From a virus: DNA of 37,766 nt. Both the position numbers and the translations under genes were made by a program. Where the stretch lies: the IMG/VR virus record IMGVR_UViG_3300009421_000002; one strand, given 5' to 3'. Each line of letters opens with the position of its first letter. The first letter of the stretch is position 1. Below the pieces are notes generated by a model. It worked only from the letters and a program-made list of their open reading frames with translations. It had not been told where the DNA came from and did not search any database. Shown here piece by piece: positions 10,153 through 29,733 of this stretch.

Positions 10153-10190
10153 GATATTTTGAGTCCTCCCTCCCGCTAATGCGGAGTTAT

Positions 10191-10215
10191 GCCCGGCTTC
10201 GCGCTGGGCATTTTT
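10191..10215 (+). terminator. Intrinsic terminator after the capsid/cement genes
   Basis: Hairpin GCCCGGC-ttcgc-GCTGGGC (one G-U pair) followed by ATTTTTAT. Confidence 0.7.
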
Positions 10216-28025: not shown

Positions 28026-28054
28026 ATCCTATTTCAACACTGAAACGATAGCAA
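28026..28054 (-). promoter_or_regulatory. Leftward early promoter candidate (-35 TTGCTA, 17-nt spacer, -10 TAGGAT)
   Basis: -35 is the complement of 28049-28054 and -10 the complement of 28026-28031. The spacer contains the palindrome TTTCA-acac-TGAAA. Confidence 0.5.
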
Positions 28055-28094
28055 GCTATTTCAGAAAAGAATTTGTCAAATCTGAAACGCTAGC
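28032..28094. promoter_or_regulatory. Operator set: CTGAAACGATAGC (28040-28052), CTGAAACGCTAGC (28082-28094), inverted partial copy GCTATTTCAG (28055-28064), palindrome TTTCAacacTGAAA (28032-28045)
   Basis: Two 13-mers differ at one base and lie 42 bp apart, each in a promoter spacer. The TTTCA/TGAAA half-sites recur. Confidence 0.6.
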
Positions 28095-28101
28095 CGATAA
28101 T
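28073..28101 (+). promoter_or_regulatory. Rightward early promoter (-35 TTGTCA, 17-nt spacer, -10 GATAAT)
   Basis: -35 at 28073-28078 and -10 at 28096-28101. The ATG at 28109 lies only 7 nt after the -10, which implies a leaderless or near-leaderless mRNA. Confidence 0.65.
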
Positions 28102-28108
28102 CGGTCGC

Positions 28109-28300
28109 ATGAAATTACGTGAACACTTACAAAGAACACGAGCCACGCTCATGGCGATGGACAAACAGCAGACCGGCAAGATCTGCGGCATCACTGGCAT
28201 GAGCGCCACCACGTTCTGGCGGATTCAGACGGGCAAGAAAATCCCTGATCTGTGGGAGTACGAAGATTTATTGAAGGCTATTGGGAGGGTTAGCAAATGA
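28109..28300 (+). CDS. Cro/CI-type HTH transcriptional regulator, 63 aa
   Basis: QTGKICGITGMSATTFWRIQTGKKIP is a typical HTH. Adjacent to the repeated operators. No SD, consistent with leaderless translation. Confidence 0.7.
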   Translation: MKLREHLQRTRATLMAMDKQQTGKICGITGMSATTFWRIQTGKKIPDLWEYEDLLKAIGRVSK

Positions 28301-28530
28301 AAGTAAGTCTTGCAAAAGCATTTATGTCATGGGCCAGCAAGGCGCTGAGAACAAATAACGGCGCTGTGAGCGAAAGCAAGCTGCCCTGGTATGTGGGCGT
28401 GGGCTCGGGCTACATTGCCCCTCTGCCGCCATATCGAAGCAAGTACAACCCTCATGTTGGTAAGAAGGAAGCCGCCAGGGCGCTCAGATTCAAAGACAAG
28501 CATGGGCACTGGCCTGGGAATACGTTTTAA
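28297..28530 (+). CDS. Hypothetical 77-aa protein
   Basis: ATGA overlap with the HTH gene. Confidence 0.5.
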   Translation: MKVSLAKAFMSWASKALRTNNGAVSESKLPWYVGVGSGYIAPLPPYRSKYNPHVGKKEAARALRFKDKHGHWPGNTF

Positions 28531-28574
28531 TCAGATAAGGGTCAGCCGGTAGTGCCCGTCAACAACCACCCAAC

Positions 28575-28600
28575 ACCGGCAGCCGGGGCAGCGGTTTTTT
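28575..28600 (+). terminator. Possible weak intrinsic terminator
   Basis: ACCGGC-agccggg-GCagCGGT followed by TTTTTT, 45 nt after the stop at 28530. Confidence 0.35.
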
Positions 28601-28864
28601 CATTCAATTTTTCCCGCTGTGACCCGGCACCTATCCCCAGCCTGACACCCACAACCACACGATAAAACCAACAACGAACCACCGGATCGTCCGAATAATT
28701 CTGTCTGTCAATTCCAGCAACGGCCAGAAGCGCCAACTGCGGCGGTACTTATCGAGCAGATTGATAATGGTCTCCCGCGAGTATCAATTCAAATGATTAT
28801 GTCTTGAGTGGTATGGCTGTGATACCTTTCACTCCGTTGACCTGTCAGTCGATGCAAACCTAAG

Positions 28865-28948
28865 CCCGTTTAAGCCTGGGGCGGTCCCGAAAGGGGGCAA
28901 CGCATAGCGCGTTGACTGACAGCCGCTTCAGCCTTAAACGGGTTTTTT
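28865..28948 (+). terminator. Long branched hairpin ending in U6: a structured RNA element and/or strong intrinsic terminator
   Basis: 28865-28884 pairs with 28923-28942 (20 positions, one C-C mismatch, two G-U). Two inner hairpins: CCC-GAAA-GGG at 28886-28895 and CAACGC-ataGC-GCGTTG at 28898-28914. TTTTTT at 28943-28948. Confidence 0.65.
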
Positions 28949-29242
28949 GCGTCTAAGCCAACCGTCAGTGCCACGAAGTTATGGGGTCCAAGAGTGCCCG
29001 CAGCACACAAAAGCTCAGCGGTAAGGGGTCGAAGTTAGATCGCCCGGTGCAAATCCGAAAGAATCCGCCGGCTGCCTGTACTCACAATGCCGAGGGGCGA
29101 ACGGTATCAATCCGTTGCTGAGTGAGACCCGAGCAATTCGGGGTTGGACATCTAAGGCTAAATGCTCTGTTGTGGGGTAGGGGGCCTTATGGAAGGAACG
29201 GACAGAAGCAGCAAAGCATTAGGGGCTTGTGGTGAGCAACAA

Positions 29243-29251
29243 TTATCCACA
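29243..29251 (+). promoter_or_regulatory. Perfect consensus DnaA box TTATCCACA, inside the inverted repeat GCTTGTGG-N14-CCACAAGC (29225-29254)
   Basis: Exact 9-mer match, 20 nt upstream of ATG 29272. It is a single copy, so a chance match cannot be excluded. Confidence 0.4.
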
Positions 29252-29271
29252 AGCAATACAGGGAAGATTCT

Positions 29272-29733
29272 ATGAAAGAAAAAATCCGGCAAATGATCGT
29301 GACAAAAGGGGCATTCAAAGGCCGATATTTTGTCGAATTGTCCACATACGCATTGATTGACATTGCTCAACAAGCGGCGGCGAAAGAGTCTCAAGCGGCA
29401 TTTAAGATTTTGCGCGACCGATACAAAGGGTCAGAAGCAAAAGCAACGCTTGCTCGCAAGAAAACGAATCGAGCAAATAGCGGCGAGTACAGCAACGCAC
29501 ATCAAGAGCAAATGATTGAATCGTGCAGCATCAGCGCGATGCGCGGCACTGAGGACGCCACAGGCTGGGCAACTATCGTTAGCCCTTACTTGCTGATTCC
29601 ATCGCTGGACAAACGGTGCTGCGACCTAAGCACAGACGAGAAGATGGAGTATTTAGCGCACACTTTTTACGGCCCGTCAGTCAAGGCGGCAATCGAAAAC
29701 CAAATGGGGTTTATCCATGCAACAGTCACTTGA
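29272..29733 (+). CDS. Hypothetical 153-aa protein
   Basis: ATG preceded by CAGGGAAG. First ORF after the long non-coding tract. Confidence 0.6.
   Translation: MKEKIRQMIVTKGAFKGRYFVELSTYALIDIAQQAAAKESQAAFKILRDRYKGSEAKATLARKKTNRANSGEYSNAHQEQMIESCSISAMRGTEDATGWATIVSPYLLIPSLDKRCCDLSTDEKMEYLAHTFYGPSVKAAIENQMGFIHATVT

Follow-up and report, generated by a model that had tools for sequence, protein, structure and literature searches.

What kind of RNA signal lies in the untranslated stretch ahead of the replication-type genes of this phage, and is it anything other than a strong terminator? The window (the whole stretch of viral DNA that was analysed, 37,766 nucleotides) is a phage contig of about 37.8 kb with genes that include a T7-type portal and a large terminase. 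It carries a leftward operon with RecT and an exonuclease, and a rightward early operon, with genes for an HTH protein and a 77-aa protein, that starts at the best sigma-70-like site of the window (28073-28101). The locus lies in a 740-nt stretch without called genes (28531-29271), on the 3' side of which are a 153-aa orphan ORF and then a 139-aa protein similar to replication-initiator families. Within this stretch, the original prediction had placed a branched RNA fold that ends in six T residues and follows a 16-codon mini-ORF, and had offered an attenuator, a riboswitch-like element or a stable phage sRNA as its possible roles. RNA signals abound in the early and replication control regions of phages and, to our knowledge, few of these have been characterised beyond those of lambda, P22, HK022, P1 and P4. 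We find that the fold is a genuine RNA structure, kept in three different phages, and that it is an undescribed element composed of a small hairpin (P0) followed by a Y-shaped putative terminator.

Direct inspection of the sequence located every predicted feature of the fold: a basal helix (core 28865-28884 with 28923-28942; one of its positions is a C.C mismatch and two are G.U pairs), two hairpins, a junction strand complementary to an upstream segment, and a terminal T6 (Table 1). The same Y shape was returned by RNAfold (-47.9 kcal/mol, z = -5.26), and none of 200 shuffled sequences folded as stably as the basal helix, two hairpins and T6 together. The basal helix (P1) is longer than originally described, extending over 28862-28945 and pairing three U residues of the tail. 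In a sliding scan of 28400-29375, the element was the sole unusually structured 100-nt segment, with z = -5.2 on the plus strand versus z = -3.4 on the minus strand, and the sequence that follows it (28949-29271) was unstructured (z = +0.7). A large non-coding RNA across the gap, built on nested long-range repeats, was considered and dropped, since nearly all of the excess stability came from the Y-shaped element.

The 9-nt complementarity between the junction strand and the upstream segment (GACTGACAG, 28914-28922, versus CTGTCAGTC, 28842-28850) amounts in the RNA to 14 contiguous pairs (28842-28855 with 28909-28922; 12 Watson-Crick and 2 G.U). The probability of at least 14 pairs was 0.002 when the upstream 100 nt were shuffled 20,000 times; a first shuffle test with RNAduplex was uninformative, as long internal loops were allowed. 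Upstream, the complementarity covers the loop and the 3' strand of P0, and a linker of 7-10 nt joins P0 to the foot of P1.

Table 1. Features of the RNA element and its upstream region, in coordinates of the window
Feature	Positions	Strand	Details
Invariant A/T-rich 20-nt box	28782-28801		TATCAATTCAAATGATTATG; 100% identical in L092, surroundings 66%
Predicted extended -10	28820-28828	+	TGaTACCTT; position shared with L092 and L140
P0 hairpin	28835-28854	+	Stem 28835-28841 with 28848-28854 (7 bp); loop 28842-28847 (6 nt, CUGUCA)
PK 5' strand (P0 loop)	28842-28847	+	Pairs with 28917-28922
P1 5' arm	28862-28884	+	P1a 28862-28874; C.C mismatch at 28875; P1b 28876-28884
P2 hairpin	28885-28896	+	(U)CCC-GAAA-GGG(G); CCC-GAAA-GGG at 28886-28895
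P3 hairpin	28898-28914	+	CAACGC-AUAGC-GCGUUG
Junction strand J3/1	28915-28922	+	28917-28922 (UGACAG) is the PK 3' strand, directly 5' of the P1 3' arm
P1 3' arm	28923-28945	+	From RNAfold and the three-sequence alignment
U6 tract, predicted intrinsic-terminator tail	28943-28948	+	From the sequence; U6 in L092 and U7 in L140 at the same place

To place the element among known families, the window was compared with Rfam, which gave no match at the gathering score; nothing relevant was found over the element at E ≤ 10, and no riboswitch class was among the results. Homologues were sought with both DNA and protein queries. The 746-nt gap had no blastn match in phage or E. coli collections, searches with the flanking proteins (77 aa, 153 aa, exonuclease, 139 aa and portal) against viral contigs and with the portal against metagenome contigs gave nothing close, and exact-pattern scans (P2-P3 core; P3 plus junction; 3' arm plus T tract) gave no matches. 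The DNA searches and most of those anchored on proteins were fruitless, the flanking genes being orphans; neither the 77-aa nor the 153-aa protein had a relative among 5.8 billion proteins searched. The 139-aa protein has one relative (79% identical) on a 1.4-kb Logan contig, L092, of which positions 153-741 align with 28391-28962 of the window at 66% identity, and this contig folds to the same Y shape with U6 (z = -4.4). A covariance model (R1) built from the window sequence alone, with the long-range pairing left out, scored L092 at 81 bits (E = 6e-16).

The third copy lies in an unrelated 57-kb phage (MW202545.1, hereafter L140), which was recovered by probing with the stretch of L092 that matches the Betaproteobacteria-1 RNA family (RF02932). 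In L140, the R1 match (2299-2425; 36.3 bits, E = 8e-7 with filters off) is directly 5' of RF02932, the element folds at -58.1 kcal/mol (z = -5.6), and the locus follows a tRNA array and does not precede an obvious operon. RF02932 itself scores 80.7 bits in L092 (744-861) and 100.1 bits in L140 (2440-2557), starting 14-15 nt past the U tract in both. Rfam gives no RF02932 match in the window, where only a remnant is seen at 29027-29045 (GTCGAAGTTAGATCGCCC), its matches never lie over the element itself, and Burkholderia copies of the family come without the Y-shaped element. The adjacency suggests that the host is a betaproteobacterium and that the two RNAs are functionally linked. Scanning 0.9 Mb of fetched loci with two covariance models (R1 and R2) turned up no additional copy, and the comparisons below are of three homologous sequences, two of which are related.

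Across these three sequences the architecture is kept while its letters change. P0 has 7 bp and a 6-nt loop (UUGGAA) in L092, and 5 bp and an 11-nt loop in L140. P3 is kept with altered sequence (CACC-GACAA-GGUG in L092, CACCGU...GCGGUG in L140), and the stem of P2 is invariant except for U.G versus C-G. The GNRA loop of P2 is not conserved, being GAAA in the window and L092 and GUAU in L140.

Covariation was assessed in two steps. In an alignment of the window and L092 made by the covariance model, 97.8% of cells pair and 8 pairs are changed on both sides, and three of the eight fall in the helix between the P0 loop and J3/1 (three of its six pairs), which was absent from the model. In the alignment of all three sequences, in which P0 and its loop were registered by hand and which is hence biased towards the structure, 95.6% of the 135 cells are paired, and compensatory double changes are seen at 17 of the 45 pairs. 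These are distributed over P1 (10 of 22), the long-range helix (4 of 6), P3 (2) and P0 (1, together with four one-sided changes), with 97% of cells paired in P1 and 100% in the long-range helix. Seventeen double changes were reached in 0 of 500 shuffles, and slid controls gave at most 5. In the window the long-range helix is CUGUCA/UGACAG, in L092 UUGGAA/UUCCAA and in L140 GUGGAAAAC/GUUUUCCAC, the letters of the contact varying and its pairing being kept; a shuffled P0 loop matches J3/1 equally well at frequencies of 0.006 (window), 0.012 (L092) and 0.0005 (L140). The A...B...A'...B' arrangement described originally is real and evolutionarily maintained, with compensatory changes in the basal helix and in the crossing helix (a pseudoknot or loop-strand kissing contact) across three phages. 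Both of the interpretations given to it, a pseudoknot or structures that influence each other, remain live and have covariation in their favour.

One position takes part in two of these pairings: the partner of 28849 is 28840 in P0 and 28915 in the extended long-range helix, and 28840, 28849 and 28915 are A, U and A in the window and G, C and G in L092. This three-way covariation suggests that P0 can be invaded by the contact, as a switch would need. The structure belongs to the plus-strand RNA, because 15 cells of the three-sequence alignment are G.U and models of the reverse strand score 18-24 bits versus 97-120 bits for the forward strand; the U tract is likewise on the plus strand only. 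As a separate observation, GUUUUCCAC, the complement of the P0 loop in L140, recurs there at 2424-2432 directly 3' of the U7 tract, and a read-through RNA would therefore carry another partner for the P0 loop.

Where would such an RNA begin? All three phages have a -10-like element 5-6 nt 5' of P0: the predicted extended -10 of the window, TGtTATGGT in L092, and TATAAT at 2292-2297 in L140 with TTGACA upstream, with T-12, A-11 and T-7 common to the three. The L140 sequence is a consensus sigma-70 promoter, and the predicted promoters of the window and L092 are weak, with no -35 element. From these positions we infer a transcription start at about 28835, the first base of P0, which would place the element, a cis-encoded RNA of about 115 nt, at the start of a rightward transcript or close to it. 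The open frame of the 16-codon mini-ORF (ATG 28813 to TAA 28861-28863, encoding MAVIPFTPLTCQSMQT) exists, with a ribosome-binding site that is weak (-3.5 kcal/mol, spacing 3-4 nt), also relative to the real genes of this phage. With a start near 28835, its ATG is probably upstream of the transcription start and outside the RNA. L092 has ATC for the ATG and CAA for the TAA and has no equivalent ORF ending at the helix foot, which speaks against the mini-ORF as a functional part of the element.

Further upstream, the invariant box TATCAATTCAAATGATTATG has only one copy in the window, in the divergent region that separates a minus-strand small ORF from P0, where it overlaps an inverted repeat, ATTGATA-N15-TATCAAT (28760-28788), and a minus-strand CATAAT. 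It could be a promoter-upstream or regulator site. A search with an 18-mer of the box gave 46 genome matches, none with a Y-shaped element downstream. We also considered a promoter of a phage-specific RNA polymerase, repeated genome-wide, and rejected it, as the box occurs only once and no domain of an RNA polymerase was found.

The minus-strand small ORF is conserved (window 28631-28765, L092 407-544, both on the minus strand; 44-45 codons, hydrophobic C-terminus) and accounts for the conservation of 28699-28766. Between the two phages, 11 of its first 22 codons are changed, five of the 11 synonymously, and no PHROG family was matched. It was not called as a gene in the window because the copy there has no ATG, GTG or TTG start; an ATC or ATT follows GGGAG.

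Other features of the surroundings are recorded here in their own right. Just 5' of the region, both phages encode a small basic protein (window 28297-28530, plus strand, 77 aa; L092 29-292, 87 aa) that is conserved in its C-terminal part (...SKYxPHVGKxEAxRALRFKxxHGHWPGNT), matches neither a Pfam nor a PHROG family, and is a candidate regulator of the region. Two 19-nt direct repeats, 28034-28052 (TCAACACTGAAACGATAGC) and 28076-28094 (TCAAATCTGAAACGCTAGC), flank and overlap the best sigma-70-like promoter (28073-28101) and are likely operators of the early switch. The 153-aa ORF (29272-29733, plus strand) is missing from L092, where the upstream context TTATCCACAA...TACAGGGGAG directly abuts the rep-like gene without this ORF between them, and it looks like an inserted gene.

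Our best explanation, a tentative one, is that the element serves as an attenuator: an intrinsic terminator under the control of a pseudoknot, placed where a phage transcript begins. During transcription, J3/1 would be made before the P1 3' arm and would pair with the P0 loop over 6-9 bp (in the window up to 14 bp, by opening P0 and P3), trapping the P1 5' arm in a closed loop. This contact would be incompatible with a complete, two-turn P1 and would act as a built-in anti-terminator, because J3/1 is contiguous with the 3' arm and a linker of 7-10 nt leads to the foot of the 23-bp helix, too short for the contact and the full P1 to coexist; the predicted exclusion rests on geometry, not on computation. 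If the contact is absent or displaced, P1 would close at the U tract and RNA polymerase would terminate. Through the balance of the two folds, the element would probably set read-through into the Betaproteobacteria-1-type RNA and the genes of the replication module, replication-type genes lying downstream on the same strand in the window and L092.

The order of folding was examined in prefix folds. In all three phages, the long-range helix is part of the minimum-energy fold while the P1 3' arm is incomplete, and the terminator takes over once the full 3' arm is present. To refold from the alternative structure into the terminator, the RNA would have to cross a barrier estimated at 33 kcal/mol for the window and at 16 kcal/mol for L092. 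The 6-bp contact between loop and junction could also be a static tertiary contact and not a switch; in L140, the whole contact lies within the 11-nt P0 loop and P0 stays closed.

That last point bears on the main rival, serious above all for L140 and judged somewhat unlikely: the element may be a stand-alone stable sRNA of about 115-120 nt, with its own promoter and its own terminator, in which the contact forms part of a compact, static pseudoknotted fold and the RNA acts in trans. The fold would then provide stability or a binding surface for protein or RNA, and the molecule might work with the neighbouring Betaproteobacteria-1 RNA. L140 fits such an RNA, with the consensus sigma-70 promoter 5-6 nt before P0, the U7 terminator about 120 nt later, a position after a tRNA array with no obvious operon behind it, and a contact that fits inside the P0 loop; a very stable terminal helix with a U tail is, moreover, typical of bacterial sRNAs. 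However, no single-stranded seed is conserved, since the exposed loops and the junction all vary, and the geometry disfavours the contact alongside a 23-bp P1. In both the window and L092, the element is directly 5' of same-strand replication-type genes, and the best trans target of J3/1 (29670-29688) is in a gene absent from L092. Of the roles first proposed, the attenuator and the stable phage sRNA are the two that stay live.

Attenuation might also be exerted in trans, in the manner of P4 CI or P1 c4. Terminated copies of the RNA would pair through their P0 loop and J3/1 with nascent leaders, block the anti-terminator and enforce termination. The architecture demanded is the same as for the pseudoknot-gated terminator, both partners are unpaired in the terminated fold of all three phages, and the element lies in an untranslated leader before replication genes, as in P4. 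We regard such autogenous control as doubtful: it is wholly inferential, the c4/CI family (RF01695) had no match even at E ≤ 10 in 28400-29400 or 28790-28960, and the extra complementary copies (28701-28712 and 29670-29688) are not conserved. Should this improbable self-sensing attenuator be true, the leader would count its own abundance (the phage genome dosage) and gate the Betaproteobacteria-1 RNA and the replication module, as a sense-encoded equivalent of plasmid countertranscript control.

No other segment of the window, on either strand, complements 28908-28925 (the P3 3' strand and J3/1) as well as 29670-29688 (plus strand; 16 bp, about -28 kcal/mol). This segment sits 29-47 nt before the ATG of the rep-like gene, inside the 153-aa ORF; it is not conserved. 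A multi-target, c4/CI-like model built on 12-mers at 28701, 28842 and 29674 was considered and is weakened, because 28701-28712 is coding sequence of the minus-strand small ORF and 29670-29688 lies in an ORF absent from L092, the copies thus not being conserved as targets.

Could the element be no more than an ordinary strong terminator, or an inverted repeat that acts at the DNA level (an origin or a protein site), with the additional features present by chance? The stem and T6 alone would terminate, the element is upstream of replication genes, and related 12-mers cluster at 28.7-29.7 kb. Against this very unlikely reading, P0, P3 and the long-range pairing also carry compensatory changes, the G.U pairs tie the fold to the plus strand, the 12-mer at 28701 is explained by minus-strand coding, and the architecture recurs in an unrelated phage without these genes; covariation thus largely refutes it. 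The description of the fold as more elaborate than an ordinary terminator is borne out by a comparison within the same DNA: the sole clean conventional intrinsic terminator that we found in the window (10189-10211, plus strand) has a 9-bp stem, a 5-nt loop and T5. Across the window, terminator-like matches are not commoner than in shuffles, and a consensus terminator scan (loop 3-8) does not list the element.

A three-way junction with a long-range contact beside a terminator resembles riboswitch architectures, and the element might be a ligand sensor built on the junction. We nevertheless find a riboswitch-like role very improbable: Rfam gives no match, the downstream genes are of phage replication type and not metabolic, and J3/1, J2/3 and the loops of P2 and P3 differ in the three sequences, the junction strand and the P3 loop varying freely. 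Since the unpaired nucleotides vary while pairing is kept, no conserved ligand pocket is apparent. Least credible of all is ribosome-mediated attenuation through the mini-ORF as a leader peptide, for although that ORF spans P0, ends at the P1 foot and accompanies three competing helices as in the trp leader, its start and stop are lost in L092, its ribosome-binding site is weak, the predicted transcription start is 3' of its ATG, and its peptide has no run of regulatory codons.

The element is absent from Rfam, and three sequences already support every helix of it by covariation, the long-range contact included. If the contact gates the terminator, the element would be an attenuator whose anti-terminator competes for no strand of the terminator, the junction tied to an upstream hairpin serving as a steric or topological block of hairpin closure. 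It is also the first genomic partner for the orphan Betaproteobacteria-1 RNA class, and it gives that RNA a likely transcriptional context, with a promoter of the element's own and then the element's terminator directly in front.

How does the element compare with known systems? With intrinsic terminators it shares a stable G+C-rich helix followed by U6-7 on one strand only, in the window, L092 and L140 alike, and A residues 5' of the stem that pair with part of the U tract. It differs in that its stem has 23 bp with a mismatch and in that a three-way junction with two hairpins (about 84 nt) replaces the 3-8-nt loop, a branched structure of 84 nt and not a simple stem-loop (stem about 5-14 bp, loop 3-8 nt). 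It further differs in that its junction strand pairs, with covariation, with the loop of an upstream hairpin.

Proteo-phage-1 (RF03044) differs from the element in structure and sequence. A sub-threshold match to this motif (23.1 bits versus a gathering score of 42) lies at 28507-28584 on the plus strand of the window, overlapping the end of the 77-aa gene, 280 nt 5' of the element in the same intergenic region; in L092, the second hairpin is kept and the conserved letters are not. The canonical motif is present in 86 IMG/VR loci (L002-L087), in none of which a Y-shaped element was found beside it, and a terminator search after the motifs in 76 loci was uninformative, the scan being too lenient. 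Pseudomonas-like prophages carry the motif between NinG/Q-like and holin/lysis genes, and in other loci it stands at the start of early operons; this placement recalls that of cis-acting antitermination sites. The Betaproteobacteria-1 RNA, in turn, is a separate structure and a physical neighbour; both it and the element are RNAs associated with phages or betaproteobacteria.

The c4 RNAs of P1 and P7 and the CI RNA of P4 are branched phage sRNAs that lie in the leader of the operon that they control and have complementary sequences in the same transcript; in P4, the CI-type RNA controls premature termination before the replication genes. The element differs from them in having a single, adjacent contact between loop and junction, with no conserved distant targets, no conserved complementary target boxes in the same operon, and no match to the covariance model of the family (c4, RF01695, listed in PMC2864571).

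Transcription attenuators such as trp-type leaders and the antisense-controlled leaders of rep genes (pT181 repC) form alternative anti-terminator and terminator folds. As in these, the upstream segment of the element forms a helix ahead of the terminator 3' arm, three helices compete with one another (P0, the long-range helix and the terminator), and the element is in a leader before replication genes. Unlike them, it has no conserved leader peptide, with no conserved translatable ORF over the first competing helix as in trp-type leaders, and an antisense promoter was not found. The element also departs from these attenuators in that its putative anti-terminator shares no strand of the terminator stem and pairs with the adjacent junction strand, so that exclusion of the terminator would be steric or topological.
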